Shown here: piece after piece, positions 3,883 through 63,659 of the stretch
Layout of the letters: every line of letters starts with the position of its first letter
How positions within the stretch are numbered: the stretch's first letter is position 1
Source of the DNA: Phycisphaerae bacterium
GTDB taxonomy: Bacteria; Planctomycetota; Phycisphaerae; UBA1845
Reading direction: 5' to 3'
NCBI GenBank assembly: GCA_020056715.1
Contig: JAGVHG010000040.1
Location: 11,920-75,919 of the forward strand
Length of the DNA: 64,000 nt
Translations under genes and position numbers: made by a program
Notes under the pieces: model-generated
Databases searched by the model: none
Told to the model about the DNA's origin: nothing
What the model saw: only the letters and a program-made list of their open reading frames with translations

Positions 3883-3885
3883 CGG

Positions 3886-3924: not shown

Positions 3925-3980
3925 AGTACCGCGCTAGCATGAAGCGGACCCATCAGAGCCGTCGGCGCGAACCGACGGAC

Positions 3981-4016
3981 ATCCAAACCCAAAGCGCGAG
4001 CGTGGGGTCCATCCGA
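3981..4016 (+). repeat. half copy of the 60-bp palindromic element (family F)
   Basis: atccaaacccaaagcgcgagcgtggggtcc aligns with the reverse complement of the right half of the elements at 57782 and 62570, and with the copy at 8576. Confidence 0.55.
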
Positions 4017-4246
4017 GACGGGAGCGGGTGCTGGCCGGTATCGGCAATTGCGACGAAGCCATATAGCCACGGAAGCAAACGCCGAAAAGCCGGAACCAGG
4101 GCACGCCGGAGGGAGACCGAGCGGTCCCGGCGCGCCAGGACTTCGATCTTGCCGACTTGCAAAGGTTTTTGAACGGCTTCCATCCCGAGCCGTAGGGCGG
4201 CGGTTGGTCGCAGGTCGCATATCGGCTATGATGCTCCTCGAAGTTC

Positions 4247-13576: not shown

Positions 13577-13632
13577 CGCTAGATCGTCCGCGAGATTGCG
13601 CTCGCGGCTCGGATCGGTCGTGTCGCTCGGGT

Positions 13633-13735
13633 TGGCCCGTCGCTTGCGCTCCGGGTTCTGATTCGTTTCGGAATTCTGCGGGCGTAGCGATAAAGATCGA
13701 CGTAGACCCTCCCCGCTCCAAGGGGCGGGGACTCG
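13633..13735. repeat. family F/G core plus C-rich/G-rich hairpin between convergent genes
   Basis: The reverse complement of 13633-13663 reads atcagaacccggagcgcaagcgacgggcca, matching about 26 of 30 positions of the 62570 element by hand alignment. 13705-13735 (gaccctccccgc-tccaag-gggcggggactc) resembles the hairpin at 4326. Confidence 0.55.
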
Positions 13736-19235: not shown

Positions 19236-19261
19236 ATGTACACGGGTCGATCAATGAACCT

Positions 19262-19329
19262 CTGGTGCGAGAATGGATTCTCGCACCAGCAAGGATTCTC
19301 GCACCAACGAGGATTTTCGCACCAGCACG
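19262..19329 (+). repeat. family D element (hairpin plus three 18-nt tandem units) in the mrdA-rodA intercistronic spacer
   Basis: ctggtgcgagaat-gg-attctcgcaccag is a hairpin. It is followed by gcaaggattctcgcacca / acgaggattttcgcacca. 28 nt are identical to the reverse complement of 63246-63273 inside pilM. Confidence 0.7.
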
Positions 19330-19337
19330 GCGTCCAA

Positions 19338-23170: not shown

Positions 23171-24924
23171 TCCGCCGCGACCGCCCGTGCCCGCGCAACC
23201 CAATAGTCGATGTAGAGCAAGAGCCACACCAGCGCGCAACCCCATGCGAACCAATCACCATACCGGGAGTACATCGAGTACCGCGAATCCACGCTGATGC
23301 GTGAGATCGCGTATCCCGACTCACCGGGCCAGCTATTGGACGGATTGCCGCGAACCCGGTCGTGTACCCGGCCTGATGGCTCGATGAACGCACTGACGCC
23401 CGTCGTAACCGCCCGCGCGATTCCGACCCGGTTCTCGACGGCTCGAAAAACGCAAATGGCCAGGTGTTGCGGCTGTTGCGACCCGTGACCGTACCATCCG
23501 TCGTTGCTGATGTTGAGCATGAAGTCGACGCGCTTTTCGTTCGATCCGCCGGAGACGAACTCCCTGCTGACGTAAGGCATCACGTCCTCGTAACAGATCG
23601 GGACGCCGAATCGGTAGGAACGGCCCGGCTGCGATGCGGGTTCCATCGTGAAGCGTCGGAACTCATTTCCGGAAGTGAGCGAATACTCGAAACCTAGGTC
23701 AGCCCCGCTGAAGGGCATGATCCGATTCAGCCAATGGTAGACGAAGCGTAACCGCCCGAACCGAAATGGAACGACCTCGCCGAAATACACGAGGTGGATC
23801 TTGTCGTAGCGTCCCGGCTCCGAGCCATCCGGGCCAAACACCATGGCCGAGTTGTATCGCCATTCCGTGGCACGCAAGTCGTACGGCGTCTTCACGAGCG
23901 AGGCACTACCCACTACCACGTAGGCGTTGCCCCCGGTCGCATAGCGTTGAAATCGGGCGAAGCTATCCCGCGAAATTTGGAAGAAGTCCCGCGCCTCCGG
24001 GTTTAGGTACATAAACCACGGGGTCTCCGGCAAGAGTAACAGATCGGGCTTCTCCTTCGCCGCCTCCTCGAGCATCGAGAAGTACGTCCGCATCTTGTCG
24101 AGATCGTTGACGTCCGGCCCATCCACCGACACCAGGTAATCGCCTTGGATCACCGCGACCTTAGGGCCCTCGGTCGTCGTTCCGCGATGCAACTGAACTT
24201 GCCCATAGATCACCGTCGCGGCCACAAGCACGATTGCGAACCCGACGCTGAATCTAGCGGACCGCGCGGGCATCCCGTCGCTGCCGCTCCGTGCTCTGAG
24301 TCTGACCAGGATCACATCGGCGATAGCCCCGTTGACCGCGGCCACGACGAAGCTGACTCCGTACGCGCCGACCAGATCACTGATCTGGATCATCGTTAGC
24401 ACGCTATACTGACTGTGGGCAAGGTAGAACCAAGGAAACCCAGTGATAACCACCGCGCGGAGCATTTCGCTGCCCGTCCAGATGAGCGGGAAGACCACGG
24501 CCAGTCCGCCTACGGCGGATCGCCGTACGGCGTGGCGTACCGGGCACGCCACTAGGGGAAAGTACGCGGCCTGGTAGAGCGACAAGCCGAGGTACCCCCA
24601 TCCCGTAGCCGCGTACATCCAGCGCATGTTGATCAGGAACGACACCAAGCCCAGCATGTAACTATAGAAATAGACCCGCGGCGCTTGCGTCGTCCTGGCC
24701 GTCAGGATCAGCCAGGGAACCATACAAACGAAAGCCACCGGCCAAACGGAGATCGGCGCGAAGATGACACTCTGCAACAGCGCGCTAAGCAGGGCGAGAA
24801 CGGCGACGGCGCGATGGGTATTGATGGCAAACTCCGGCGCAGCCTCGGAGGGCACGCGGCGTGGCTTGGCATTCGGCGTGGTCGGATCGAGAGTTCGGTT
24901 CAACAGGCGTCCATCCTTGGGCAT
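23167..24924 (-). CDS. lnt: apolipoprotein N-acyltransferase
   Basis: Multi-TM N-terminal domain plus a CN-hydrolase domain with the E-K-C triad context (LLLPETPW, YDKIHLVYFGE, GVPICYEDVMP). Confidence 0.88.
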   Translation of the reverse strand: MPKDGRLLNRTLDPTTPNAKPRRVPSEAAPEFAINTHRAVAVLALLSALLQSVIFAPISVWPVAFVCMVPWLILTARTTQAPRVYFYSYMLGLVSFLINMRWMYAATGWGYLGLSLYQAAYFPLVACPVRHAVRRSAVGGLAVVFPLIWTGSEMLRAVVITGFPWFYLAHSQYSVLTMIQISDLVGAYGVSFVVAAVNGAIADVILVRLRARSGSDGMPARSARFSVGFAIVLVAATVIYGQVQLHRGTTTEGPKVAVIQGDYLVSVDGPDVNDLDKMRTYFSMLEEAAKEKPDLLLLPETPWFMYLNPEARDFFQISRDSFARFQRYATGGNAYVVVGSASLVKTPYDLRATEWRYNSAMVFGPDGSEPGRYDKIHLVYFGEVVPFRFGRLRFVYHWLNRIMPFSGADLGFEYSLTSGNEFRRFTMEPASQPGRSYRFGVPICYEDVMPYVSREFVSGGSNEKRVDFMLNISNDGWYGHGSQQPQHLAICVFRAVENRVGIARAVTTGVSAFIEPSGRVHDRVRGNPSNSWPGESGYAISRISVDSRYSMYSRYGDWFAWGCALVWLLLYIDYWVARARAVAAE

Positions 24925-26886: not shown

Positions 26887-28071
26887 ATGACGACGACCAG
26901 CACGAATCCTGTGATCTCAGAGGTTGGGCGATCCTACCTGCGCCTCCAGCGAGTCCCCGACGTCGGACCCGTCCGCGCCAGAAACCTCATCGCCCATTTC
27001 GGCTCGGTCGACGCCATCTGGTCCGCGTCGATGGCCGAACTGCAACACGTAGAGGGAATCGGTCCATGTGTTGCCGAATCCATCTTCCGCTCCCGCGACG
27101 AAAAGGGAGTGGACGAGGAGATCGCCAAGGCCGTCGAATGTGAGTTGCGAATCCTCTGCCCCGAGGACGCGGATTACCCCAAACCGTTGCTGCACATCCC
27201 CGACTCGCCGATCTGTCTCTACGTGCGGGGTACGCTTCAACCCGCGGATAGCGTGGCCGTAGCTATCGTGGGAACGCGACGATGCTCCCACTACGGCCGA
27301 GAGCAAGCGCTACGCTTCGGCGAAATGCTCGCCGGCGCGGGGTTCACCGTTGTCTCCGGTCTGGCCCGAGGCATTGACGGCGAGGCCCATCGCGGCGCAT
27401 TACGCGCCGGGGGACGCACTGTCGCCGTCCTCGGCAACGGTCTGGGTTCGATCTACCCGCGGGAACACGAGGAATTGGCCGAAGAAATCGCCGCAAGCGG
27501 CGCAATCGTCAGCGAACTTGAAGTGGACATCGGCCCGGACTTCAAAAACTTTCCCCCGCGCAACCGAATCATTGCCGGGCTGTCGCTGGGCGTGATCGTC
27601 ATCGAGGCCGGAGAAAAGAGCGGCGCTCTCATTACGGCCAGACTCGCTACCGAGTACAACCGCGAAGTCTTCGCCGTTCCCGGCAATGTTGATCGCCCCG
27701 CGCAAACCGCGGGAAGCAATGCCCTGATCCGCGACGGACAGGCCAAGCTCATCACTTGCCTCGATGACGTGCTCAATGAACTCGGCGAGGTCGGTAAGTC
27801 GCTGCGCCCCGACTCCTCGCTCCTCCCCACCGACGCTCCGCTTTTCGCAACCGCGAACCTTGCACAGCACGAACGATCCATCCTTGAAGCGGTGAGCAGC
27901 GGTATCGAGGAGGTGGAGGGCATCTGCACAACGACGCGCCTCGATGCCGGGTCGGTGACCTCCACCTTGACGGCCCTGCAACTCCGCGGTCTGATCCGTC
28001 TGTTACCGGGTAACCGGTTTGTTTGTCGCACTGCTGCGCGATCAGAGCCGCGAGCGGAAGCGAGCGGATAA
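26887..28071 (+). CDS. dprA: DNA-processing protein DprA (Smf)
   Basis: N-terminal SAM-like domain, Rossmann-like core with GLARGIDGEAHRGAL and GSIYPREH, and a C-terminal winged-helix-like extension. Confidence 0.85.
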   Translation: MTTTSTNPVISEVGRSYLRLQRVPDVGPVRARNLIAHFGSVDAIWSASMAELQHVEGIGPCVAESIFRSRDEKGVDEEIAKAVECELRILCPEDADYPKPLLHIPDSPICLYVRGTLQPADSVAVAIVGTRRCSHYGREQALRFGEMLAGAGFTVVSGLARGIDGEAHRGALRAGGRTVAVLGNGLGSIYPREHEELAEEIAASGAIVSELEVDIGPDFKNFPPRNRIIAGLSLGVIVIEAGEKSGALITARLATEYNREVFAVPGNVDRPAQTAGSNALIRDGQAKLITCLDDVLNELGEVGKSLRPDSSLLPTDAPLFATANLAQHERSILEAVSSGIEEVEGICTTTRLDAGSVTSTLTALQLRGLIRLLPGNRFVCRTAARSEPRAEASG

Positions 28072-28100
28072 CCCAGCCAAACGTCACGGACAGACATCCC

Positions 28101-28127
28101 GTCGCTACCGCTCCGGGCTCTGATCCA
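28101..28127 (+). repeat. short dispersed repeat (family G variant)
   Basis: gtcgctaccgctccgggctctgatcca matches 54044-54070 (gtcgctaccgctccccgctctgatcaa) at 24 of 27 positions. This copy is intergenic; the other is inside the histidine kinase ORF. Confidence 0.6.
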
Positions 28128-33285: not shown

Positions 33286-35130
33286 CTACGGGCATGCCGC
33301 CGCGTCGCCGACGCACGTCGAGTCCCATTCTGTTTCACAGCAGTAGGGATCGCTCGCGCATACGGTCTCGCAACAGGTTTGTGTAGCGCAACCGGGCGTC
33401 GCATGGACCGAGTGACAATCGCCCGCTCCTGGCACGCAGGTCAAGAAGCACATCGAGTTCGCCTCATCCACACAAGTCCCGTCCCACTCCTCAAGGCAGC
33501 AGAACGGATCGACCTTGCACACCGTGTTGCAGCAGGTCTCGTTGCAACCTGGATTGCTGTCGGGCGTACCGCAGGTTCTTGTATTCGCAGTGCATGCCGT
33601 GTAGCTTCCTTGGCAAACGCCCTTCGCCTCTTCCGCACAGTCCCCATCCCAATCCACATCACAACAGAACCGATCCAATGTACAGATCTGCGCACAGCAG
33701 CCCGAGCCCGCATCGTCGCAGCCCGGCGTCAGCGTCTGACTCGGCGACTCTGTGAAGCAGTCGCCAGTCCCGTTGGCGCAGGCATCGACGACATCGCACC
33801 CGATGGTCAACCGTCCGTCCCCCTGCTTGGTGAGGTATCCGCCTACACGGACCAGATATTGCTGCCCCGACGTCACCGCTATGGTGACGCGGGATTGCTG
33901 CTTTTTGACATCCCCCGTGCCGCCGCAGTCGTCGTCGCTGCACGCCAGCGGCGCCGCCGAGGGGCAACCACAACCGGCGTAGACCGCCAGCTTGGTGTCG
34001 TAATCACTGCCGCACAGACTTACCATCGCCGTGCACGTGTCCGTGGCCGTGTAGCAATACCAGATGTCGGAGTCCACGTTTGTTGATCCGGCGAAGTTGC
34101 ACGTCGCCGGTTCATTCGGACCGTCCGTCGTTGCCCCGGCGTTACTATAGGTCCGTGTCCCTTCGCCCACGGGAGTTGCGACGCTGCAAAGTTCGTTGGG
34201 GATTCCGCCTCCGCCACCCCCGCCTCCGCCTCCGCCTCCTCCGCCGCCACCGCCACCTGTCTCAGTCTGGCAGGTCGCCGAGCAGAGGTCTCCGTTCACC
34301 GTGTTCCCATCGTCGCACTGCTCGCCGGCGTCTACGTGCCTATCGCCGCACTTCGTGCAGTTGTTGCGGCAGCCGTCGGTGTCGACGGCATTACCGTCGT
34401 CGCATGTTTCGACTCCGGCTGGTCCATCTATGGCTTTGTTACCGCAGTACGTGCAATTGCTTCGGCACGCCCCGTGGCTGGCCGGTGCGGTGGTCTCGAA
34501 CTTGGTTCCGTCGCAATCCTCGCCGGTGTTGAGGACGCCGTTTCCACAAGTCGCGGGAGGCGGTTCAGTCTGGCAGGTCGCCCCGCAACGGTCGCCCGGC
34601 GTGGTGTTCCCATCGTCGCACTGCTCGTTTGCGGCAGTGTTCAAGATGCCGTCGCCGCAGCGGGCTGTCGTGCAGTCGGCGTTGCACGACGCCGTCTCAC
34701 CGCCGTCGTCGCATTGTTCAGATCTATCCACGATGCTGTCACCGCAAACCGGTAGCGGCCGATCAGGTTCTACCTGACAGGTCGAGGAGCAACCGTCCAA
34801 ATCCACCGTATTTCCGTCGTCGCATTGCTCGGACGAATCCAAGACGCCGTCACCGCAAACCGGCAGCGGCCGATCAGGTTCTACCTGACAGGTCGAGGAG
34901 CAACCGTCTAAATCCACCGTATTTCCGTCGTCGCATAGCTCGGAAGTATCCACGATGCCGTCACCGCAAACCGGTGAGGGTTCATTGTCGTTGCCGTTTC
35001 CTGTGTTATCGTTGGTGTTGTCCGTCCCTGGGTCGACGAGCGGGCACCCACCCATGGCCAGCGCCGTCAGTCCAGTGATTAACAAAGAAAACGAGTTACG
35101 CCGAAGCCATGCGAATGGTAACTGATACAC
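33286..35130 (-). CDS. secreted multi-domain cysteine-rich protein (Myxococcus-type Cys-rich repeats, poly-Gly linker, PPC-like domain, CC...FCC...WD..C modules)
   Basis: Signal/lipobox-like N-terminus. Repeats of CGDGxxD..EQCDDGNTxxxDGCSSTCQxE. 18 consecutive Gly. C-terminal triplicated motif (GCCAQICTLDRFCCDVDWDGDC, ETCCNTVCKVDPFCCLEEWDGTC, QTCCETVCASDPYCCETEWDSTC). Confidence 0.8.
   Translation of the reverse strand: MYQLPFAWLRRNSFSLLITGLTALAMGGCPLVDPGTDNTNDNTGNGNDNEPSPVCGDGIVDTSELCDDGNTVDLDGCSSTCQVEPDRPLPVCGDGVLDSSEQCDDGNTVDLDGCSSTCQVEPDRPLPVCGDSIVDRSEQCDDGGETASCNADCTTARCGDGILNTAANEQCDDGNTTPGDRCGATCQTEPPPATCGNGVLNTGEDCDGTKFETTAPASHGACRSNCTYCGNKAIDGPAGVETCDDGNAVDTDGCRNNCTKCGDRHVDAGEQCDDGNTVNGDLCSATCQTETGGGGGGGGGGGGGGGGGGIPNELCSVATPVGEGTRTYSNAGATTDGPNEPATCNFAGSTNVDSDIWYCYTATDTCTAMVSLCGSDYDTKLAVYAGCGCPSAAPLACSDDDCGGTGDVKKQQSRVTIAVTSGQQYLVRVGGYLTKQGDGRLTIGCDVVDACANGTGDCFTESPSQTLTPGCDDAGSGCCAQICTLDRFCCDVDWDGDCAEEAKGVCQGSYTACTANTRTCGTPDSNPGCNETCCNTVCKVDPFCCLEEWDGTCVDEANSMCFLTCVPGAGDCHSVHATPGCATQTCCETVCASDPYCCETEWDSTCVGDAAACP
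34738..34959. repeat. 111-bp (37-codon) tandem duplication inside the Cys-rich protein gene
   Basis: Units 34738-34848 and 34849-34959 differ at only a handful of positions by eye. A third, more diverged unit flanks each side. The period is divisible by 3. Confidence 0.85.
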
Positions 35131-36512: not shown

Positions 36513-36693
36513 AGCTTGTTATCCTTCCTCAAGTTTCGCCGTACATGGCGCGCCATCGGTATTATACACGAATCATCGTCCCGCTGTAACGCCGCAGCTT
36601 GGCGGCGGCGGCGGGGCCCGCTGGCTCGCGCCCGCGGCTCTGATCGACCGACTTGCAGGTCTTGTGCCAGTTGCCACCGGCTCGAGCACGCGA

Positions 36694-39697: not shown

Positions 39698-40023
39698 CGA
39701 ACGCGTTCCTGCTGCGTGCAGCTTGAAGACGTGCGGATTGTCCCATGGTCGGCGGAATCCGGCAATTCAGGGCCGGGAGCGCAAGCGACCGGAGCTGTCC
39801 GATGTCGTCGCGGAACTCGCCGAAAAACTGCCCTATTATGCCGGGGTGCCACTGACGAAGTGTGCCACTGCTCTTGAGCAGTGTGTTTGTCCCGGAAGGA
39901 AGATCACTGTTGTTCCAACAGTGGCACTCGGCGAGATTACCCGGTCGCACCCCCGGGGGGGGCTGAGGGTCTTCGCAGATGGGGTGAACAATACCTCGTC
40001 GGAATGACATTCAAAAACGGCGA

Positions 40024-52681: not shown

Positions 52682-52760
52682 CCCGCTCTACTCTCAACTT
52701 TCATTAGACATGGTCCGCAGAATTGCTACATACAGCGGATGGGCTTCGTTTGGTCCGCAA

Positions 52761-52800
52761 CAGCCCAAACGCCCTTGAGTCCGCCTGCGGCGGAGGCGAG
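52761..52800 (+). repeat. composite hairpin module (head, first arm and loop, then the palindrome tccgcc-tgc-ggcgga)
   Basis: cag cccaaacgc ccttga g tccgcctgcggcgga ggcgag. 36 of 37 nt are identical to 53823-53859. Confidence 0.8.
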
Positions 52801-52816
52801 GTGACTACCTTCAACA

Positions 52817-52890
52817 TGCGCCCGGCGGGATTCGAACCTGCGACCCCCGGTTTAGGAAACCGGTGCTCTATCCAACTGAGCTACGAGCGC
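52817..52890 (-). tRNA. tRNA-Arg (anticodon CCU)
   Basis: Reverse complement: GCGCTCGTAGCTCAGTTGGATAGAGCACCGGTTTCCTAAACCGGGGGTCGCAGGTTCGAATCCCGCCGGGCGCA. It has a 7-bp acceptor stem (one G-U pair), D-arm GCTCAGTTGGATAGAGC, anticodon stem CCGGT/ACCGG with loop TTCCTAA, and T-arm GCAGG-TTCGAATC-CCGCC-type. No encoded CCA. Confidence 0.9.
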
Positions 52891-53273: not shown

Positions 53274-53346
53274 GGAAATGTGGAAACGCCGAAGCCGGGA
53301 AAAGCCGAAATTTCGGCGTTTCAGCGTTTTGACTTTTCCGTTTCGG
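53274..53346. repeat. family A ~74-nt palindromic element (GAAACGCCGAAA type)
   Basis: ggaaatgtggaaacgccgaagccgggaaaagccgaaatttcggcgtttcagcgttttgacttttccgtttcgg. The whole element folds on the centre gaaatttc. Confidence 0.75.
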
Positions 53347-53356
53347 ACGGGGTCGT

Positions 53357-53386
53357 CAGCGGCAAGGCCGGTGAGCCTTGCCGCGA
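53357..53386 (+). repeat. 30-nt hairpin module (loop variant CGGTGA)
   Basis: cag cggcaaggc cggtga gccttgccg cga. The 9-bp stem is perfect. It contains the TTG (53378) that the ORF track uses as the kinase start. Confidence 0.75.
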
Positions 53387-55564
53387 GGAGATGGTGCGCA
53401 CAGCTTGCGAAACTGGTGGAAATCATTTCGAGGGTTCCTCACCGCGGAGGAAGTGCCGCGTTGGTTCGGCCTTTCCGTAGTTCTCATCTACGTCGTGGGA
53501 ATGGGGTCCATCGCCCAGTTCGGCATCGCCCAGGCGCGGCGGGAGACGGCGATCCGTTTCCAGATTGACAGCCAATACGCGGTCAAGCTCCTCGCCGATC
53601 GAATCGAGGCCATCGAGGGCGAGGGCGCAACCGACCCGAAGTGGTTGAGCGTCTGCCAACGAGCGCTGCGGGAGTTCGCGGCCAACGTCCCCGCCAAATC
53701 CGTTCGCGTTGTTGAAGGCCGTCCTCCGGGGCGGATCATCGCCTCGACCAACCCCACGGAAACCGGGACCAGTACCACTCCCGGCGCGCCGGGAGTGGCG
53801 CGTGGGGCGCGAATCGCGGCACACCAAACGCCCTTGAGTCCGCCTGCGGCGGAGGCGAGCGGATCAACCAAGGCATTGCAACCAGGCGGGCTGGAGATCG
53901 CAACGATTTCCTCGAACGGCTCCGAAACGCGGCATCGACTCCTCCGTGCGCCGCTCCACCGTATCCATCAGAGCCGGGAGTCCGCCGCAGGCGGACGACC
54001 GGAATCGACGTACGTGGACCACGCTGCCCAGGAGGCCAATCGGGTCGCTACCGCTCCCCGCTCTGATCAAGACGCCTACCTAGAGGTCATCCTGCCCTTC
54101 GAACCGGTCGAACCGACGAGTCTTGCCAACCAGGCGCGGATGCTGGCCATCGTCCTGGCCGTGCTCGGGGCGTTGTTTGTGGTCTATCGATGTTTGCGCG
54201 AACAGCTTCGCGGACTCTCCAAGATCGCCGGCCGTCTGGAATTGCATCGAGATCGGATTGAAGACGACCTCGCCTCCCTGCGGATCGGTGACGCACTCGA
54301 TGGAGTCACCGTGGGCTGGAATGAACTCGTTGACCTGACCGAGCGACTCCAAACTAGCGTTCAGCGGACCGAGGCCAACGAGGAACTTTCCAGCGTTCTT
54401 CAACGCACAGGCGCTGGGGCGTTGTCCGAAGCGCTCAACGCCGTCCCCGACGGGCTGATGTACATCTCCGATGAAGTTCGCTTCGAGTATCTCAACTCGG
54501 CGGCCCTGCGACTACTCGGGTGGAATGCGCCAGACGCCAACGTCAGCGGCGTGGCCCGTGAGCCACGCCGTGAGAGAAACTATCCGACCCTGATCGATGC
54601 CCAGGCGAACGGACTGGGCCTGAAGCTCTTGGAATTGATTCGCGGCGCCGCCTTGCCGGAGGGCGTTTTTGAAGCGCGGACCGAGGTGCTCGAGGCCGGC
54701 GACGCCGAGGCCCACGACCTCAGTACCTACCGTGTGTGGCTGATTCCCTTGCAGCGCGCCCGTCACCACGGCGAGTGCGTCGTCGTCATCCGTGATGTGA
54801 GCCAGCAGTTTCGCGCCGACCGTGCCCGCGAGGAATTCATCGCCCAGGTGACGCACGAACTACGCACGCCGCTCACCAACATCCGGGCGTATACGGAGAC
54901 CCTTTCCAGCGGCATGTTCGAGGACCCCAAGGTCATCACCGAGTGCTACAACGTGATCACCAAGGAGACCCGCCGGCTGTCGCGTTTGGTGGAGGACATT
55001 CTGAGCGTTTCGCAGTTGGAGGTCGGCTCGATCGAGCTGCACGTGGACAGCGTTGACCTCAAGGTTTTACTGAACGACGGCGTACGCGACGTTCGGGGCC
55101 TCGCCGATGAGAAAAACATCGACGTCCAATTGGTCTTGCCCGCAAAGCTCGAACCGGTCCGCGCCGACCGCGACAAGCTCGCCGTGGTCATCAACAACCT
55201 CCTCGGCAACGCGATCAAGTACACGCCCGCCAACGGTAACGTGATGGTCGGCTGTCAGGTCGCCGCCGACGTCGTGGTGCTCACTTTCAAAGACAACGGC
55301 ATCGGAATCGACCCCTCGGAGCACACCAAGGTCTTTGAGAAGTTCCAGCGCGGCAGCAACCCGGAGGTGCAGAGCGAGTCGGGCACGGGTATCGGTCTCT
55401 ACACGGCCCGCGAGATCGTACGTCGTCACGGAGGGGACATCGAGCTGCTCAGCGAAAAGGGCAAGGGTTCGACCTTTATGGTGCGCTTGCCGCATCGCGA
55501 GAGCCGCGCCGCCGCCGTCAGCACCAACTCCCGTGAGAGTTGGGGCGGTCAGTCCGCGGTGTAA
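53378..55564 (+). CDS. sensor histidine kinase (two TM helices, repeat-colonised extracytoplasmic region, PAS, HisKA, HATPase_c)
   Basis: H-box FIAQVTHELRTPLTNI, N-box NNLLGNAIKYT, G1 DNGIGI, G2 GTGIGLYTAREIV. TM helices FGLSVVLIYVVGMGSIAQFGI and MLAIVLAVLGALFVVY. The start is uncertain (TTG 53378, TTG 53405 or GTG 53453). Confidence 0.88.
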   Translation: MPRGDGAHSLRNWWKSFRGFLTAEEVPRWFGLSVVLIYVVGMGSIAQFGIAQARRETAIRFQIDSQYAVKLLADRIEAIEGEGATDPKWLSVCQRALREFAANVPAKSVRVVEGRPPGRIIASTNPTETGTSTTPGAPGVARGARIAAHQTPLSPPAAEASGSTKALQPGGLEIATISSNGSETRHRLLRAPLHRIHQSRESAAGGRPESTYVDHAAQEANRVATAPRSDQDAYLEVILPFEPVEPTSLANQARMLAIVLAVLGALFVVYRCLREQLRGLSKIAGRLELHRDRIEDDLASLRIGDALDGVTVGWNELVDLTERLQTSVQRTEANEELSSVLQRTGAGALSEALNAVPDGLMYISDEVRFEYLNSAALRLLGWNAPDANVSGVAREPRRERNYPTLIDAQANGLGLKLLELIRGAALPEGVFEARTEVLEAGDAEAHDLSTYRVWLIPLQRARHHGECVVVIRDVSQQFRADRAREEFIAQVTHELRTPLTNIRAYTETLSSGMFEDPKVITECYNVITKETRRLSRLVEDILSVSQLEVGSIELHVDSVDLKVLLNDGVRDVRGLADEKNIDVQLVLPAKLEPVRADRDKLAVVINNLLGNAIKYTPANGNVMVGCQVAADVVVLTFKDNGIGIDPSEHTKVFEKFQRGSNPEVQSESGTGIGLYTAREIVRRHGGDIELLSEKGKGSTFMVRLPHRESRAAAVSTNSRESWGGQSAV
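53776..53797. repeat. perfect 22-nt palindrome, sharing a 19-mer with 56558-56576
   Basis: cactcccggcgcgccgggagtg. The 19-mer tcccggcgcgccgggagtg recurs in the HD-GYP gene. Both are read in the same frame as PGAPGV. Confidence 0.75.
53820..53859 (+). repeat. composite hairpin module inside the kinase ORF
   Basis: cac accaaacgc ccttga g tccgcctgcggcgga ggcgag. Translated as HQTPLSPPAAEAS. Confidence 0.8.
53969..53998 (+). repeat. 30-nt module variant (CAG-N9-[tccgcc-gca-ggcgga]-CGA) inside the kinase ORF
   Basis: cag agccgggag tccgccgcaggcgga cga. Same head, tail and total length as the canonical modules. Confidence 0.6.
54044..54070 (+). repeat. short dispersed repeat (family G variant) inside the kinase ORF
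   Basis: 24 of 27 positions identical to the intergenic copy at 28101-28127. Confidence 0.6.
54544..54573 (+). repeat. 30-nt hairpin module inside the kinase ORF
   Basis: cag cggcgtggc ccgtga gccacgccg tga. The 9-bp stem is perfect. Read as SGVAREPRRE. Confidence 0.8.
55519..55548 (+). repeat. 30-nt hairpin module inside the kinase ORF 3' end
   Basis: cag caccaactc ccgtga gagttgggg cgg. 8 of 9 stem pairs. Read as STNSRESWGG. Confidence 0.78.
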
Positions 55565-56025: not shown

Positions 56026-57521
56026 CTCGTCCAAAAAAACAGCATGCTGTTCCGACTTCTCCCGGCGCCCCGGCGACGTCCAAGATCGAAGCATCAGACG
56101 CACGGCCCGTGAGCCGTGCGGCGAGGGAAGGCCCGAAGATCGAAGAACCCGACCGTTTGGGCCTTCGATCTTTGATCTTTGATCTTCGATCTTCGGGTGA
56201 CCTGACCGCGTTGCTGCCGGCTCTGTCGTCGTCGGTCGAACAGTTGATGACCGAGCACCAGGGCATGGCCGACGAATTGCTCTGCCTGTACGAACAGCTC
56301 GGCATCATCTTTGAGATCACCCGCAAGCTCGCCGGGGTTCATAACGAATCCGATGTTCTCGACCTTTTTCTAATCAGCCTGCGACGCAGTTTTGAGGAAC
56401 GGACCGTCTTTGCCGCCCACAGCCGCCCCCGCGGATGGGTGTTGGAAGGGAAACGCGACCGTCATGCGAGCCGACCGGGAAGGGAGGGTCCAGATGGGAG
56501 CGGCGACACGATGGTGGTCAATGAATGGTTGCGCGGACTGCTCGACCGTGCCGCGAATCCCGGCGCGCCGGGAGTGATCGTCGAATCGGCGTTGCCGGGG
56601 GCCATGCCCGGCGCTATCGCCGAGGCCATGATCGCCCCGGTGATCTCCGGCGACGCCCTTGTCTGCTCCCTCGTTCTCCTCCGCACCGAAAAGACGCCTG
56701 CGTTCCGGGCGAGTGAGATGATGTTGATCGAGTCCCTCACCACCTTCTGCGGCGACCTGATCCGCAGCCATCGGCTGGTGCGCGAGCTTCGCGAGATGTC
56801 TCTCACCATGGTGCGGGCCTTGGTCAACGCCATCGATCAGAAGGACGAATACACCTGCGGTCATTCCCTGCGCGTGGCGTACTACGCCACGACGCTGGGT
56901 CAACACCTCGGCTTGGGTGAGGTCGATCTCCAGATGCTCCAGTGGGCCGCGCTCCTCCACGACGTGGGGAAAATCGGGATTCGCGACAACGTCCTTAAGA
57001 AGGAAGGCAAGCTCACTCCCGAAGAGTTCGGGCATATCCAGGAACACCCCGTCCGCAGCCACAAGGTCGTGCAGGAAGTTCCGCAGCTTCTCCGAGCGTT
57101 AGACGGCATTCTTCATCACCACGAACGATACGACGGCTCCGGATACCCCGCAGGGCTGAAGGGGGAACAGATCCCGTACCAGGCACGGATCATTCAGATC
57201 GCCGATGTGTTTGACGCTCTGACCTCCAACCGCTCTTACCGTAAGGCCTTCGACTGGCAGCGGGCCTTAGGAATCCTTCAAGAAGAGGCCGGCAAAACCG
57301 TCGACCCGTGTTTGCAGAAGATCTTCGACACCCTCATCCGCGAGACGCTGAAAGACGAGCCGATGGCATGGGAACGCATGGTCGAACACGCCAACCGTTT
57401 CATGCAGGGTCTGGATGCTCCCGACGACCGAGAGTCAGACGACGCGACCGTCAGACGACGCGACCAAGGCGGGAGCGTCCGGGCGCCGGGAGTCGGCGGA
57501 AATAGAAGGAGAATGACATGA
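56022..57521 (+). CDS. HD-GYP domain protein (predicted c-di-GMP phosphodiesterase) with a GAF-like N-terminal region
   Basis: HSLRVAYYA, LLHDVGKIGI, HHERYDGSGYP. The first ~75 codons consist of repeat elements. An alternative start at ATG 56247 would leave them intergenic. Confidence 0.85.
   Translation: MTRPKKQHAVPTSPGAPATSKIEASDARPVSRAAREGPKIEEPDRLGLRSLIFDLRSSGDLTALLPALSSSVEQLMTEHQGMADELLCLYEQLGIIFEITRKLAGVHNESDVLDLFLISLRRSFEERTVFAAHSRPRGWVLEGKRDRHASRPGREGPDGSGDTMVVNEWLRGLLDRAANPGAPGVIVESALPGAMPGAIAEAMIAPVISGDALVCSLVLLRTEKTPAFRASEMMLIESLTTFCGDLIRSHRLVRELREMSLTMVRALVNAIDQKDEYTCGHSLRVAYYATTLGQHLGLGEVDLQMLQWAALLHDVGKIGIRDNVLKKEGKLTPEEFGHIQEHPVRSHKVVQEVPQLLRALDGILHHHERYDGSGYPAGLKGEQIPYQARIIQIADVFDALTSNRSYRKAFDWQRALGILQEEAGKTVDPCLQKIFDTLIRETLKDEPMAWERMVEHANRFMQGLDAPDDRESDDATVRRRDQGGSVRAPGVGGNRRRMT
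56082..56197. repeat. family B inverted-repeat element with a nested 30-nt hairpin module (56095-56124)
   Basis: Perfect 14-bp arms cccgaagatcgaag (56132-56145) and cttcgatcttcggg (56184-56197). The nested module is cag acgcacggc ccgtga gccgtgcgg cga. Confidence 0.78.
56558..56576. repeat. palindromic 19-mer shared with 53779-53797
   Basis: tcccggcgcgccgggagtg, identical in both genes. Confidence 0.75.
57434..57480 (+). repeat. family E element (16-bp tandem duplication plus a 27-mer shared with pilM)
   Basis: gtcagacgacgcgacc occurs twice (57434-57449 and 57450-57465). gacgacgcgaccaaggcgggagcgtcc (57454-57480) is identical to 63580-63606. Both are read as RRDQGGSV. Confidence 0.8.
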
Positions 57522-58915
57522 CGCTGACACTTCTATTGCCGTGGTTTCCGATCCTCTTGGCCGTCGGCGTCGGCGGACGGTTGTTGGGGCGCAGTCGCGG
57601 CTTCGCCCTCGGCCTGGTGTGCGGGATGTTTTGGATCGTCTTGGTTCAGGCAACCGCCGGAACCGGAGTGTGGAGGCAGCCGTGGGTGGTCGTGACCATG
57701 CTCATCGGCGCCGCGGCGATTTTTCTGATTGGCGGGTGGGCCGGTTCCGCCGAAGGCGGACCGCTCGACGATCTCGCGCCCATCCGAACCCGGAGCGCAA
57801 GCGACGGGTCAAGACCCCGCGCTGGCGCTTGGGGTTCGGATTCCACGGAGCGCTCCTCCGATGAGACGACGATCGCCCTCGACCGGTTCGCAACCGTGAT
57901 CCAGCAGTTCGACGACTGGCTTGTCGAACACCGCGACGATGCCGACCCTTGGCCGTTGTTCGGCGAGTTCATTCGCGGCGCCCTGTATCAATGTTGCAAG
58001 GCGACGCACGTAAAACCATTTCGCTTACTCAGCGAAGGCGAAGAGCTGACGCCGCTCCAATCGTCCCGGTTGGAGCCGGACCCATTTACGGAAGGTAGGC
58101 GAGTTTCCGCTCGGCAGGGGATTCTAGGTCATGTGGTTACGAGCGGTCGATCCTACGTAGAAGGCGACCGGACCCAGGGTGAGCTGATCGAGCAACTAGC
58201 CCAGGCCTGCCCTGAACCGATCGTGTGGTGCTTCGCCATCACCCAAGGCACCCAAAGACTCGGTGCGGTGACGGCGGGTCAACTGGACATCGTTCCCGCA
58301 GACAACCTGGCGCTGCTTCGCGCCGTCGAACAACTTGTCTCGCAATGTTGGTGCCTGCTCGCTGAAACGGTTCACAGCCGCACCGCCGGTCAAGATGACC
58401 CAGGCTCGGGACTCTATAACCGGACCGCGTTCCTCCAGGTCGCAGAGCAATCGTTGCGCGAATCGTACGCTCAAGGTGAACCGGTGGCGATCGCCGTGAT
58501 CGTCGTGGAAGGGATGCGCGAGCTGAACGACGCCGGAAGATGGGAGGTCGCCGATGAACTGGTCCGCGAAGTCGCCGACTCCCTACGCCGCAAGATTCGC
58601 ATGGATGACCGCCTCGGGCGTTTCGACGGTTCGCGTTTCATCTGGCTGCTACGCCGCGTAGACGCCGAGTTGGCGTCGCTGATTGTCAAGCAAGTGATAT
58701 CGCGTCTGACGACGTTGTGCGGCGACCGTAGCCGATGGTCCGCCTCTGGCGGAGCGATCACTGTGCGTTGCGGCGTGGTCGGTAGCGGTACCGGTAGTAG
58801 AAACCCCGACCTCCGCACGCTGGTCTCCCATGCCTTGGTGCAGTCTCGCCGTGCAAGGCTCGAACATGTGACCATCGCCGGCGAACTGGACGCGGCGGAA
58901 ATGTCGAAACGCTGA
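57518..58915 (+). CDS. membrane-anchored GAF-GGDEF protein with a degenerate active site (DGSRF) and an intact RxxD I-site
   Basis: Two N-terminal TM helices and a GAF-like middle region. The GGDEF-fold pattern is GLYNRTAFLQVAEQ...VAIAVIVVEGMRELND...RKIRMDDRLGRFDGSRFIWLL. It has an ATGA overlap with the HD-GYP gene. Confidence 0.8.
   Translation: MTLTLLLPWFPILLAVGVGGRLLGRSRGFALGLVCGMFWIVLVQATAGTGVWRQPWVVVTMLIGAAAIFLIGGWAGSAEGGPLDDLAPIRTRSASDGSRPRAGAWGSDSTERSSDETTIALDRFATVIQQFDDWLVEHRDDADPWPLFGEFIRGALYQCCKATHVKPFRLLSEGEELTPLQSSRLEPDPFTEGRRVSARQGILGHVVTSGRSYVEGDRTQGELIEQLAQACPEPIVWCFAITQGTQRLGAVTAGQLDIVPADNLALLRAVEQLVSQCWCLLAETVHSRTAGQDDPGSGLYNRTAFLQVAEQSLRESYAQGEPVAIAVIVVEGMRELNDAGRWEVADELVREVADSLRRKIRMDDRLGRFDGSRFIWLLRRVDAELASLIVKQVISRLTTLCGDRSRWSASGGAITVRCGVVGSGTGSRNPDLRTLVSHALVQSRRARLEHVTIAGELDAAEMSKR
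57782..57841 (+). repeat. family F 60-bp palindromic element inside the GGDEF-protein ORF
   Basis: Perfect 10-bp termini atccgaaccc / gggttcggat. 53 of 60 positions identical to 62570-62629 inside pilM. Read as IRTRSASDGSRPRAGAWGSD. Confidence 0.85.
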
Positions 58916-58970
58916 AACACCGAAACGCCGAAATTTCGGCTTTTCCCCATTTCGGCGTTTTCGCATTTGG
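58897..58970. repeat. family A ~74-nt palindromic element between the GGDEF gene and the STAS gene
   Basis: ggaaatgtcgaaacgctgaaacaccgaaacgccgaaatttcggcttttccccatttcggcgttttcgcatttgg. It covers the last 6 codons and the stop of the GGDEF gene. Confidence 0.85.
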
Positions 58971-58977
58971 ATAGCCT

Positions 58978-59313: not shown

Positions 59314-59386
59314 GAGAAAGCGGAAACGCCGAAACACCGAAACGCCGAATTTTCGGCTTTTCCCCATTTCGGCGTTTTCGCATTTA
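59313..59386. repeat. family A ~74-nt palindromic element between the STAS gene and the ATPase gene
   Basis: The 55-nt core (59331-59385) differs from 58914-58968 at one position. Confidence 0.85.
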
Positions 59387-59390
59387 GCCG

Positions 59391-61157
59391 ATGCCGAATC
59401 TAACCATCGAAACCGCAGTCCGACTCGGCGACCAGCTCATCCGCGACGGCGTGGTCACGGCTGAGCAACTCGCGGACGCCTTGGCGCGTCAGTCCGCCGC
59501 AGGCGGAGCGGTGCGTATCGGCAAGGCGCTCATGGACGTCGGCGCCATCTCCTCCGCCGCCCTCGTTGGGGCGCTCGCCCGACGGCTTAACGTGAAGGGA
59601 ACTACGCTCCGTCACGGTCTCATCGACCCCAAAGTCGCTAAGTCCATCCCCAAGGAGGAGGCCGAACGGCTGCGCGTGCTGCCCCTGTTCCGGGTGCGCG
59701 ACGAACTCACCGTGGCCATGGTCGATCCGCAATCTCTGCCCGTCCAAGATCGGCTTCGGTCGCTCACCGGCTGCGCGATTCGCTCAGTTCTCGTTCTCGA
59801 GGAAAACCTCGCCGAGTACCAGCAGAAATACCTCGCCGCCGAGGTCACCGTCGATTCCTTCCTCGCCTCGATGGAAGAGTCCGACATTCAGATCACCGAG
59901 TCGGAAGCGATCGACGAAGGCCCGATCACCGACCTCGACAAGATGGTCGAGGGCAGCCCGATCGTAAACCTCATCAACCTCGCCATACTCACCGCCCTCC
60001 GTGCCGGGGCCTCCGACGTGCACATCGAGCCGGACCGCGACGGAACGCACATCCGCTATCGCATCGACGGCGAGTTGCGCGAGATGCTCAAGCCCCCGCG
60101 GGGGATGCACGCCGCGATCGTCTCCCGCGTCAAGGTCATCGGGCGGATGGACATCGCCGAAAAGCGGCTCCCTCAGGAGGGTCGCGTGCATCTCGTCGCT
60201 GACCGTCGCGAGATTGACCTGCGTGTCTCCTCCATGCCCACCGTGCTCGGCGAAAAGATCGTGCTCCGCATTCTCGACAAGGCCAATCTCTCCTTCGAGC
60301 TGGAAACCCTCGGAGTTCGAGGACAGGACCGTTGGGCGATCGAGGCCATGATCCACAGCCCCTACGGCCTGATGCTCGTCACCGGGCCTACCGGCTCCGG
60401 AAAGACCACGACACTATATTCCGCTTTGGATCTCCTCCGCGACGAGTCCACCAACATCGTCACCATCGAGGATCCGGTGGAGTATCAACTGCCGCTCGTC
60501 AACCAGATTCAGGTCAACGAACGAGTGGGGCTGACCTTCGTCCGCGCCCTGCGGTCCATCCTCCGACAAGACCCCGATGTCATCATGGTCGGAGAAATTC
60601 GCGATCAGGACACCGCCCGCGTGGCGATTCAGAGCGCCCTCACCGGCCACTTGGTCCTCTCCACCCTGCACACCAATGACTGCCCCGGCGGCATCATGCG
60701 CCTGGTGGACATGGGCATCGAGCCGTTTCTCCTCACCGCTTCCATCCTCGGCTTCGTCGCCCAGCGGCTCGCCCGCACGATCTGTGCATCTTGCAAAACC
60801 TCCTACTATCCGCCACCCAATTTGCTCAAGCAGGTCGGCTGGGAGAATCGCACCAGCGAACTCTTCCAAAAGGGCGAAGGCTGCCGGGAGTGCAACAACA
60901 CCGGGTTCCGCGGGCGCATCGGCATTTACGAGGTGATGCTGCTGGACGCGGAACTCAAGCAGATGATTCAGAAGAACCCGTCGGAAACCGACATCCGCGT
61001 CTACCTCGCCCAGACCGGATGGCGGACGTTGCGGGAAAAGGCCCTCGACCTGGTCGAGCGCGGTGAATCCACGCTCGAGGAAGTGCTGCGGGTGACGCGC
61101 TCCGAGGCGCTCGACGTCAGTGATCCGTCGGGCGCCGGAAGAGTGGGTGAATCATGA
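59391..61157 (+). CDS. GspE/PilB/MshE-family secretion ATPase with an N-terminal MshEN-type domain
   Basis: Walker A GPTGSGKTTT, Walker B VIMVGEIRD, His box TGHLVLSTLHTN, and the tetra-Cys cluster CASCK...CRECNNTG. The N-terminus is RLGDQLIRDGVVTAEQLADALARQ, then RIGKALMDVGAISSAALVGALARR. Confidence 0.9.
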   Translation: MPNLTIETAVRLGDQLIRDGVVTAEQLADALARQSAAGGAVRIGKALMDVGAISSAALVGALARRLNVKGTTLRHGLIDPKVAKSIPKEEAERLRVLPLFRVRDELTVAMVDPQSLPVQDRLRSLTGCAIRSVLVLEENLAEYQQKYLAAEVTVDSFLASMEESDIQITESEAIDEGPITDLDKMVEGSPIVNLINLAILTALRAGASDVHIEPDRDGTHIRYRIDGELREMLKPPRGMHAAIVSRVKVIGRMDIAEKRLPQEGRVHLVADRREIDLRVSSMPTVLGEKIVLRILDKANLSFELETLGVRGQDRWAIEAMIHSPYGLMLVTGPTGSGKTTTLYSALDLLRDESTNIVTIEDPVEYQLPLVNQIQVNERVGLTFVRALRSILRQDPDVIMVGEIRDQDTARVAIQSALTGHLVLSTLHTNDCPGGIMRLVDMGIEPFLLTASILGFVAQRLARTICASCKTSYYPPPNLLKQVGWENRTSELFQKGEGCRECNNTGFRGRIGIYEVMLLDAELKQMIQKNPSETDIRVYLAQTGWRTLREKALDLVERGESTLEEVLRVTRSEALDVSDPSGAGRVGES

Positions 61158-62378: not shown

Positions 62379-63659
62379 ATGATGGTCGCACTGAAAGCTT
62401 TGCAACGCACCAGCTGGCGCGGCAGTCGAAGCCGGATCGGTCTGGACATAGGCGCAGCTGGTATCCGCGCCGTCCAGTTGAACCGCCAAGCACAGCCGCG
62501 CGGCCCAAGTAGCCCCCGCAGCCTGGACGGTTACGTGGTGACGAACGCCGCCTGTGGCGACCGGAGCCCGTCCGAACCCGGAGCGCAAACGACGGGCCAG
62601 GACCACGCACTAGCGCTTGGGGTTCGGATTCCACCGTTGCTGCCCCGTCAGGTCGAGGATTGTCTGCGCCGAGCAAACGTCCGCGGGAAAGCCGTCGCCG
62701 CCGCCCTGGCGACTCCCGACGTGGAGTTTCATACCCTTGAGTTGCCCGCCGCCGTTTTTCAGGCCGACGAGGTCGAGGCCGCTCAGATCGTGCGATTCGA
62801 AGTGGAACGCCTCATGTCCAACTCGCACGCTCCCGTCGAGACCCGGCATTGGCGACTGCCGCAGACGAACGTGACGGCCCCGAACGCCATCGGCGCGGGC
62901 GCCGCACATGAAATCATCAACGCAACGATCAAAGTCTGTGCCGAGGCGGGGTTGACCTGCACCGATCTGGATACAACCGCCACGGCGCTCAGTCGGTTCG
63001 GCGCTGTGTTGCAGAGCCGACCCAAAGACCAGATATGGGGAGTTCTGGACGTTGGCGATCGTCAAGCCCGCTTGGTGCTTTGCCTCGACGATACGCCGAT
63101 TTTGGTGCGGACGGCGGGCGCCGGTGGACGTGCCTGGACCCAACGCATCGCCGACGCCCTGCAAGTGAGCTTCAAGGCCGCGGAAATCCACAAACGCGAC
63201 CACGGGATCGCCCTGACCGGTCGTGCACTGGTGCGAGAATCTGCACTGGTGCGAGAATCCATTCTCGCACCAGGGGCCCCCCGCCTCCCCCATTATCAAG
63301 GGGGGAAAGAGGGGGTTCGAAGCGAATTGGCCTCGTTGATTCTGGGTGCCGTACGCGCGGACCTCAACGATCTGGCCTCCGAGGTCAAGCGATCGTACGA
63401 GTATGTCCTGAGTTGTTACCCGGGGAGACAGGCCGCTGACTTGGTACTTTGCGGCGGCGGTTCGCTCCTGCACTATTTTCCCGAGTTCCTGGGCAATGCC
63501 TTGGGCATACCCGTGCGTCGAGCGTCGAGCTATCTCCAGAGCGAATCGTGTCGACTTCGCTTCGCCGCCGAGAGGGTCGGACGACGCGACCAAGGCGGGA
63601 GCGTCCACGCTCCCCTCGAAGTCCTCGCCGTGGCCGTGGGACTCGCCATATCAGAGTAG
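62379..63659 (+). CDS. pilM: PilM-like actin-fold pilus assembly protein carrying three in-frame repeat-element insertions
   Basis: N-terminus IGLDIGAAGIRAVQL, then ...VLDVGDRQARLVL..., then C-terminal LVLCGGGSLLHYFPEFL. It is 426 aa; removing the element-derived segments leaves roughly the usual PilM length. Confidence 0.75.
   Translation: MMVALKALQRTSWRGSRSRIGLDIGAAGIRAVQLNRQAQPRGPSSPRSLDGYVVTNAACGDRSPSEPGAQTTGQDHALALGVRIPPLLPRQVEDCLRRANVRGKAVAAALATPDVEFHTLELPAAVFQADEVEAAQIVRFEVERLMSNSHAPVETRHWRLPQTNVTAPNAIGAGAAHEIINATIKVCAEAGLTCTDLDTTATALSRFGAVLQSRPKDQIWGVLDVGDRQARLVLCLDDTPILVRTAGAGGRAWTQRIADALQVSFKAAEIHKRDHGIALTGRALVRESALVRESILAPGAPRLPHYQGGKEGVRSELASLILGAVRADLNDLASEVKRSYEYVLSCYPGRQAADLVLCGGGSLLHYFPEFLGNALGIPVRRASSYLQSESCRLRFAAERVGRRDQGGSVHAPLEVLAVAVGLAISE
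62570..62629 (+). repeat. family F 60-bp palindromic element inside pilM
   Basis: gtccgaaccc...gggttcggat. 53 of 60 positions identical to 57782-57841. It is read in a different frame from that copy (SEPGAQTTGQDHALALGVRI). Confidence 0.85.
63225..63316 (+). repeat. family D element (2 x 18-nt tandem plus hairpin) followed by a C-rich/G-rich hairpin, inside pilM
   Basis: gcactggtgcgagaatct / gcactggtgcgagaatcc / attctcgcaccag. Then ccccccgcctccccc-attatcaa-ggggggaaagaggggg. Read as ALVRESALVRESILAPGAPRLPHYQGGKEG. Confidence 0.8.
63580..63606 (+). repeat. family E 27-mer inside the pilM 3' end
   Basis: Identical to 57454-57480. Confidence 0.8.

Follow-up and report, generated by a model that had tools for sequence, protein, structure and literature searches.

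A REPIN-like inverted pair of hairpin units in frame in a GGDEF-domain gene and in pilM of a Phycisphaerae bacterium

Described hairpin repeats and the element in the window

The Rickettsia palindromic elements (RPEs) are found in frame in many unrelated functional genes, in more than one reading frame, and are thought to be surface-exposed at positions compatible with the fold of the host protein, according to PMC10969869 and PMC3733652. The first to be described were about 150 bp long (Ogata et al. 2000, as summarised in PMC10969869). A 60-bp element that behaves in a comparable way is the subject of this report. It lies in a 64-kb stretch (64,000 nucleotides, hereafter the window) of contig JAGVHG010000040.1 from the Phycisphaerae bacterium assembly GCA_020056715.1, where one copy is in frame in the gene of a GGDEF-domain protein and another is in frame in pilM. 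Coordinates are those of the window throughout, while L- and P-numbered entries are related loci or contigs and homologous proteins compared with it. Like the RPEs, the element is palindromic and is read in more than one frame at fold-compatible positions of unrelated functional genes. This Rickettsia-like colonisation, proposed in a first-pass annotation of the window, is real, because the same family is also in frame in housekeeping genes of relatives (see below). It differs from the RPEs in length (60 versus about 150 bp) and in its host, a GC-rich metagenome-assembled genome (MAG) of free-living type rather than an obligate intracellular alphaproteobacterium. The two are likened by behaviour, not by sequence.

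Repetitive extragenic palindromic (REP) sequences tagged by GTAG or CGTC offer a second comparison. Most are found downstream of genes; a minority are in frame in known genes, and more than half of these inserts are dimers that encode 20-30 residues (Di Nocera et al. 2013, PMC3733652). In-frame REPs are most numerous in Opitutus terrae, a member of the PVC superphylum, and in Rickettsia conorii, and their hosts include tRNA synthetases (PMC3733652). The repeats described here likewise consist of short hairpins with a tag and usually follow genes. Some of them are in frame inside genes, in part as dimers, and a tRNA synthetase is again among the hosts. However, their conserved end is TC(C/A)GA(A/G), and CGTC occurs merely incidentally inside some stems. 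The tag is CnGA rather than GTAG or CGTC, and therefore the element falls in neither superfamily. It does display the general features of REPs and of their paired forms, the REPINs, namely high copy number, dispersal, a mostly extragenic location near gene 3' ends, and inverted dimers that propagate as a unit. Bertels and Rainey are said to have proposed in 2011 that two inverted REPs make up one replicating unit that leaves no target duplication, with a single-copy, repeat-flanked Y1 gene as the presumed mobiliser. Classical REPINs, unlike the present element, have GTAG feet, are associated with class 2 REP-associated tyrosine transposases (RAYTs) and are described as extragenic.

The hairpins of class 3 Y1 transposases come nearest in form. 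These enzymes occur mainly in Planctomycetes, Acidobacteria and Proteobacteria; on either side of their genes, which carry the motifs NHVH, W[TA] and YV[VI]xEQ, stand atypical hairpins whose foot is CnGA (Quentin et al. 2018, PMC6006769). The units listed in its Table S1 come from Planctopirus limnophila, Solibacter and Legionella and have the shape ((((..((....))..)))). The published P. limnophila unit, segmented as CACGAG CCGG AA GC GTGA GC GA CGGG, is nearly identical in form to the Phycisphaerae unit. The two groups share the CnGA foot and a hairpin in which 4 bp are followed by an internal loop of 2 nt, a further 2 bp and a loop of 4 nt; they also share high copy number and occurrence in Planctomycetes. 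On two metagenome contigs, L183 and L194, units flank a class 3 gene, but no such gene was found in the Phycisphaerae DNA sampled (see below). Intragenic copies and compact dimers of 60 nt, both seen here, are not reported for class 3 hairpins in PMC6006769. The first-pass annotation was not aware of in-frame colonisation having been described for such genomes. In-frame REP dimers are, however, already on record in O. terrae and elsewhere (PMC3733652), and the hairpin type is known beside class 3 genes of Planctomycetes (PMC6006769). With both the in-frame dimers and the hairpin class published, the element is a new example of a known phenomenon.

Architecture and dispersal of the element

The two 60-mers were found where the first-pass annotation had located them, at 57782-57841 and 62570-62629 on the plus strand, with 53 of 60 positions identical. 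Over a longer stretch of 69 nt (57778-57846 versus 62566-62634) they are still 90% identical. A 26-nt core allowing up to three mismatches occurs three times in the window and in none of 100 dinucleotide-preserving shuffles. The inverted termini had been described as perfect over 10 bp in both copies, which is correct for the first; the second begins GTCCGAACCC, with G as its first letter, and is perfect over 9 bp.

The first host gene (57518-58915, plus strand) encodes a membrane-anchored protein of 465 amino acids with a degenerate GGDEF domain (Pfam GGDEF, 3.5e-13), of which the element supplies residues 89-108, IRTRSASDGSRPRAGAWGSD. The second (62379-63659, plus strand) is pilM, encoding a type IV pilus assembly ATPase-like protein of 426 amino acids (Pfam PilM_2/FtsA), and here the element supplies residues 64-83, SEPGAQTTGQDHALALGVRI. 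Homologues of PilM mostly have about 365-370 amino acids, and pilB-pilC-pilM synteny is conserved in the homologous loci of relatives. The junction peptides that span the element are encoded as LAPIRTRSASDGSRPR and SPSEPGAQTTGQDHALALGVR. As the first-pass annotation maintained, the two genes read the element in different frames, and therefore it is the DNA, not a peptide, that is conserved. Direct reading of the 60-mer shows five of its six frames to be free of stops. Recognisable protein is encoded on both sides of the element in each gene. Downstream lie the GGDEF domain (residues 294-432) and PilM_2/FtsA (from residue 92); upstream lie the transmembrane helices of the GGDEF protein and the IGLDIG motif of PilM, seen as invariant alignment columns. 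Intact proteins therefore require that the element be read through. The GGDEF signature itself reads RFDGSRF in place of GGDEF or GGEEF (58600-58650, residues ~366-372), a change conserved among homologues, and the protein is probably not an active cyclase. Public annotation has an identical product of 465 amino acids, on a contig of 141 kb. By their homologues, PilM and the GGDEF protein come from an uncultured member of the Phycisphaerae (Planctomycetota).

AlphaFold models agree with the expectation that such inserts are accommodated in loops. The PilM model has a mean predicted local distance difference test (pLDDT) score of 87.8, which falls to 51-67 at residues 61-80, with the element at 64-83, between a strand (51-61) and a helix (88-99). 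Confidence is also low at residues 281-310 and 391-410, which correspond to two other repeat-derived inserts. In the model of the GGDEF protein (mean pLDDT 88.9), only residues 83-106 score below 50; the element, at 89-108, is placed between the membrane helices and the first cytoplasmic helix. Both inserts are thus predicted as low-confidence coil flanked on either side by conserved, confidently folded protein. The encoded segment of about 20 residues is probably of low complexity and disordered.

The element had been described as a 60-bp palindrome. It does form an inverted, hairpin-forming structure, but it is not one indivisible palindrome, since its units also occur singly. The 60-mer is a REPIN-like inverted pair of 26-nt, REP-like hairpin units that stand 6 nt apart with their 5' feet outward. 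In the GGDEF gene, the left unit is at 57783-57808 (plus, 42.4 bits) and the right unit at 57815-57840 (minus, 37.3 bits), separated by the 6-nt spacer; in pilM the units are at 62571-62596 (plus, 32.0 bits) and 62603-62628 (minus, 19.7 bits). Each unit consists of a foot, TC(C/A)GA(A/G), that contains CnGA, followed by a 4-bp stem strand, GA, GC, a GNNA loop, GC, GA and the complementary stem strand. The four-base loop is GCAA, GCGA or GCCA. Among 184 units, the foot is TCCGAA in 152, TCAGAG in 23, TCCGAG in 6 and TCAGAA in 3, so that every one has CCGA or CAGA, and 111 have the GA/GA internal loop.

The outer stem varies in a compensated manner, with CCCG/CGGG, CCCC/GGGG, CCGC/GCGG, CCGG/CCGG, CGTG/CACG and CACC/GGTG all represented. 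In 126 distinct units chosen without any stem constraint, the proportion of stem cells that pair is 76% (shuffles, 69%), and covariation scores 0.191, compared with 0.100 in shuffles; neither value was reached in any of 500 shuffles, and slid registers score at most 0.114. When the left and right arms of the pair are compared, compensating changes preserve each small hairpin while introducing G-G and C-C mismatches into the long one. This fits selection on the small hairpins. The left-right combination is nevertheless fixed, which suggests that the pair is copied as one unit. Folded as single-stranded DNA, the GGDEF copy adopts the long hairpin at -27.1 kcal/mol (z = -6.5). The pilM copy forms a weaker hairpin of only -17.1 kcal/mol and is therefore taken to be a decayed copy of the same pair. 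At gathering thresholds, the sole Rfam match in the window is a tRNA, and around the element Rfam yields nothing at E<=1 beyond microRNA-hairpin matches far below threshold.

A covariance model built from 40 units detects 18 of them in the window. Seven are inside four genes (a single unit in lnt and a pair each in the histidine-kinase gene, the GGDEF gene and pilM), two are at gene 3' ends and nine are extragenic, the latter lying downstream of genes or between convergent genes. The partial copies reported earlier at 3981, 4361, 8576 and 13633 are all real, although that list was incomplete.

Membership of a dispersed repeat family, present at unrelated loci of many related genomes, is likewise supported. 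An exact-pattern scan of one genome per species found at least 112 stretches in species-representative genomes, and nearly all of those listed are from MAGs of Phycisphaerae or other Planctomycetota; JBJXFK01, CAYQZH01 and JAZDHF01 are examples of MAGs rich in units. Thirty convergent unit pairs were found, spanning 57-185 nt. A compact 58-nt form, with the same left and right arms and a conserved spacer, recurs at unrelated loci in several genomes between unrelated flanks. No target-site duplication was seen at about 14 compact copies, nor at the orthologous filled sites. In-frame location in relatives was judged conservatively, by an open frame across 90 codons on each side together with a coding-type GC content at the three codon positions (GC1/2/3) on both sides. 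By this measure 11 of 117 testable elements are in frame in coding-like open reading frames (ORFs), 77 have no open frame across them and 29 are ambiguous. The hosts include methionine synthase (MetH), NuoL, arginyl-tRNA synthetase (ArgRS), an aspartate/ornithine carbamoyltransferase and UbiE, and in addition a GT4 glycosyltransferase, an amine oxidase and a TolC-like protein. The inserts are usually between Pfam domains, and 8 of the 11 use the SEPGAQATG frame.

Orthologous sites, mobilisation and competing explanations

The history of the two sites was followed through codon alignments of seven other assemblies with a syntenic locus (histidine kinase, response regulator, HD-GYP, GGDEF, STAS, pilB, pilC, pilM). 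At the GGDEF site, L001, L007 and L009 carry the element at 60 nt with the frame kept, L003 has its left half only, and L006, L004, L010 and most aligned homologues lack it. At the pilM site, it is present in L007 (60 nt) and in L001 (54 nt), while L009, L004, L010, L006 and most aligned homologues are without it, those lacking it numbering more than 100. The frame is maintained even in diverged copies, the 6-nt deletion of the L001 pilM copy being an example. Absence of the element from the same positions of more distant orthologues is what the insertion proposal had anticipated. On the other hand, a precise 60-nt insertion relative to a collinear empty site could not be demonstrated in the orthologues, since both sites are hypervariable linkers, and the alignments showed no target-site duplication at either. 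On balance pilM has gained about 11-12 codons, not 20. At both sites of L003 (2089-3519 and 7130-8536) there is another dispersed repeat, GGTTTGGGGTCTGGGG...CCCCAATCCCCAATCC, also found in L059.

Apparent copy age was gauged by comparing each copy with the commonest sequence among the listed compact copies. In the window, the GGDEF copy matches this sequence exactly and the pilM copy differs from it at 7 positions. In L007, it is the pilM copy that is close (2 differences) and the GGDEF copy that is distant (about 10). The L009 GGDEF gene shares 76.8% identity with that of the window, yet its element is identical at 59 of 60 positions; in L007 and L001, where the gene is 85.0% and 81.5% identical, the GGDEF copies match at 50 of 60. 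The closest relative, L006, with a GGDEF gene 87.1% identical, has no element at either site. The junctions are identical at all filled sites. This pattern could result from repeated insertion at a preferred target, from homogenisation by other copies or from recombination between lineages. A tentative extension, which we regard as possible but rather doubtful, is that the same nucleotide positions of the GGDEF gene and pilM have been occupied again and again in this Phycisphaerae clade, now by near-master copies, now by decayed ones, by nothing or by an unrelated repeat, with class-3-type REPINs as recurrent occupants. If so, there would be either site-specific targeting or replacement of old copies, or else the genomic pool would homogenise the resident copies. 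Loops of housekeeping and signalling proteins would in that event be under constant reshaping by several repeat families together, and this in a bacterium that is free-living.

We think it likely that the 60-mer is a non-autonomous, class-3-type REPIN-like element that is mobilised in trans on single-stranded DNA and survives in frame in tolerant loops. According to this proposal, the family would spread as single-stranded DNA, cleaved at the foot and rejoined by a class 3 Y1 enzyme (HUH, IS200-like, 'RayT') acting in trans, without target-site duplication. Most copies would land, or survive, just downstream of genes. Survival inside a gene would call for a tolerant linker or surface loop, an added length that is a multiple of three (60 nt here, 99 nt in the histidine kinase) and an open frame. 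The GGDEF and pilM copies would be two such intragenic survivors, translated as inserts of about 20 residues.

A transposase gene flanked by its own repeats is called a REPtron, and one such arrangement involves the units described here. A metagenome scan with a TCAGAGCC-type unit returned at least 120 stretches. Among them, contig L183 has an ORF of 170 amino acids that matches Pfam Y1_Tnp and carries the motifs THVHFVV, RWT and YVVREQ; inverted unit pairs bracket this class 3 gene at 311-380 and 903-970. L194 is a second unit-flanked case, probably damaged. On L183 (240-1030), the class 3 gene and its unit pairs are inside the 3' end of a host gene and are bracketed by a duplicated host segment (AATGGCCTACCAGGC and a diverged continuation); because of this duplication, the upstream copy now ends in a different C-terminus with its own stop.

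Several observations weigh against the proposal that a class 3 enzyme mobilises these elements and that the inserts are translated. The closest homologues of the L183 protein, many called 'REP element-mobilizing transposase RayT' by the Joint Genome Institute (JGI), are named as Acidobacteria, and the gene is therefore from another phylum. Unlike in the class 3 system, neither the window nor the sampled Phycisphaerae loci, about 1 Mb, yielded a cognate transposase gene, whether of class 3 or of another kind. The one genuine Y1_Tnp gene from a Phycisphaera MAG, on L020, is flanked by different inverted repeats and was rejected as the cognate. There is no clean empty site: at each of the two positions, orthologues that lack the element have a stretch of similar length but unrelated in sequence. 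Decayed homology to the element was not significant in the L006 GGDEF linker or at the element-free pilM sites, where 327, 41 and 88 of 500 shuffles scored as high or higher. Divergence of the copies does not track divergence of the genes, so that a single old insertion followed by neutral decay fails to explain them. Translation of the inserts is inferred rather than observed, and the exact PilM product, looked up with eight candidate starts, had no match in the public protein collection.

As regards the last point, that collection does contain the PilB, PilC, GGDEF, HD-GYP, LspA, DprA and Lnt proteins encoded on this contig; the source annotation may have left pilM uncalled or called it differently. 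The L006 linker is not a repeat within the window and the related loci compared. The searches for a cognate gene gave the following. RAYT and IS200 probes had no tblastn match in the window or related loci, which is a weak negative. With the L183 protein as query, the only real matches were L183 and L194, weak ones in L098 and L050 being an ABC ATPase and a response regulator. HUH...Y motif scans gave several candidates, among them the L020 gene; that in L087 is a protein kinase and that in L126 is the antisense of another gene. In L082 and L070, where distant unit pairs enclose intervals the size of a gene, the ORFs have 468 and 483 amino acids, far more than a Y1 transposase. The L020 gene (2936-3631, minus strand) encodes a protein of 231 amino acids with PNHVHLV, WQNRF and YVERNP (Pfam 5.2e-15), and its flanks are the inverted repeats GGGACAGTCACC and GGTGACTGTCCC with AT-rich CTAATTAG repeats, not CnGA units.

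Other explanations have to be set beside mobilisation by a class 3 enzyme. A classical miniature inverted-repeat transposable element (MITE) would be an insertion sequence shortened by deletion, with terminal inverted repeats of 10 bp, that a DDE transposase moves by double-stranded cut-and-paste. It would account for the perfect termini of the GGDEF copy and for compact, uniform copies of 58-60 nt at several unrelated loci. However, the expected target-site duplication is missing from the compact copies and the orthologous filled sites, and what look like termini are the foot and outer stem of units that are scattered elsewhere one by one or as direct tandems. The variable distance between paired units and the covariation of the stems, as expected of an element recognised by its structure, point the same way, and we hold a MITE to be very unlikely. 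That both sites are old, fast-evolving, low-complexity linkers, resembling each other by convergence or gene conversion without any insertion, is less credible still. The hypervariability of both sites, the lack of a clean empty site and the 4-5 nt of flank shared by the two copies on each side are in keeping with this idea, which is nonetheless largely refuted by the dispersed family, the recurrence of the same 58-nt sequence at unrelated loci of other genomes, and the 18 units in the window from which the structured inverted pair is built. The different reading frames in the two genes and the more than 100 PilM homologues that lack the element also contradict it.

More room is left for the view that the units are functional RNA or DNA signals kept by the cell (stabilisers of mRNA 3' ends, terminator-like structures or protein-binding sites) in the absence of an active mobile family, and that the intragenic copies are by-products or even translation regulators. 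The extragenic units follow genes or stand where two genes converge, as is usual for REPs (PMC3733652). The GNRA-like loops (GCAA, GCGA) and the tandem GA/GA resemble stable RNA motifs, and selection on the sequence could keep the GGDEF copy 59/60 identical across lineages whose genes are only 77% identical. Yet no Rfam family matches, the hairpins have no T-run, and a comparison of the unit list with the ORF map shows single units in both orientations to transcription, about 8 sense and 4 antisense. Other orthologous copies, moreover, decay freely, to 50/60. As a full account this view seems to us unlikely; since function and mobility are compatible, it is more a complement than a rival to class-3-type mobilisation.

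In-frame colonisation of proteins by REP-type repeats is accordingly not confined to reduced intracellular genomes, and here several families take part at once, with essential enzymes among the hosts. It also ties the poorly characterised hairpins of class 3 Y1 transposases to a visible effect on protein sequence. The inserts lengthen proteins, provide alternative C-termini (LspA, DprA) and create apparent lineage-specific 'linkers'. They could thereby mislead analyses of homology, domain boundaries and selection in MAGs.

Other units and repeats in the window

Of the remaining intragenic units, an inverted pair of 99 nt at 53968-54066 is in frame in the histidine-kinase gene (ORF 53378-55564, residues ~197-230), where the protein has extra residues compared with its orthologues; the left unit has an enlarged inner stem. 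A single unit at 24274-24299 (minus strand, 29.7 bits) is in frame in lnt (ORF 23167-24924, minus strand), between LNT_N and CN_hydrolase. The Lnt product, of 585 amino acids, is annotated as such in public sources. At the 3' end of lspA (ORF 7829-8608), a single unit of the right-arm type, detected by the covariance model at 8577-8602 (plus strand), supplies the last codons and the stop, as had been proposed from the sequence. Relatives of LspA have alternative C-terminal tails. The 3' end of dprA (ORF 26887-28071) is overlapped by the left unit (28042-28067) of an inverted pair with a 30-nt spacer at 28042-28123 (41.5 and 40.3 bits), the right unit being intergenic.

Units in direct orientation occur in twos at three places: between convergent genes at 13588-13661 (minus strand, 22.8 and 43.1 bits); downstream of ORF 2506-3882 at 3953-4007 (plus strand), with a third, degenerate unit at ~4010-4035; and upstream of or within the 5' end of the ORF of an FG-GAP/ASPIC gene at 4363-4421 (minus strand, 34.5 and 34.4 bits). 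Single extragenic units are at 36618-36643 (minus strand, 38.5 bits) and 39767-39792 (plus strand, 34.3 bits).

The same genes contain other repeats. A second palindromic family, TGGTGCGAGAATCCATTCTCGCACCA, partly tandem with an 18-nt period, is in frame in pilM at 63224-63290 as LVRESALVRESILAPG, an insert for which AlphaFold confidence is low (residues 281-310). It is also extragenic at 19259-19342, and related copies are found in L003 pilM and at other loci. A third repeat, GGACGACGCGACCAAGGCGGGAGCGTCC, encodes the peptide RRDQGGSV in frame near the C-termini of PilM (63566-63613) and of the HD-GYP protein (57423-57487). The peptide stands at different positions in the PilM orthologues P0004, P0006 and P0007, and in some LspA relatives the repeat replaces the REP-derived tail.

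Further in-frame repeats are found in the N-terminal region of the histidine kinase, including a 45-nt segment of the kinase gene that is 91% identical to a copy beside the tRNA gene at 52817-52890; these repeats and their copies elsewhere in the window are at 53776-53859, 52756-52800, 56552-56576 and 4126-4139. The palindrome CCCGGCGCGCCGGG, read as PGAPG in the kinase, recurs in the HD-GYP gene and in pilM of orthologues. Intergenic arrays of GAAACGCC-like sequence with an 8-nt period, their halves inverted around CCGAAATTTCGG, are located at 3872-3930, 53275-53345, 58890-58976 and 59315-59401; they are found upstream of the kinase gene, on both sides of the STAS gene and just before pilB. 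They may represent a further family of repeats or an array bound by a regulator. Finally, 2.5 copies of a 111-nt tandem repeat (90% matches) lie at 34703-34974 in ORF 33286-35130 (minus strand), with diverged copies further upstream.

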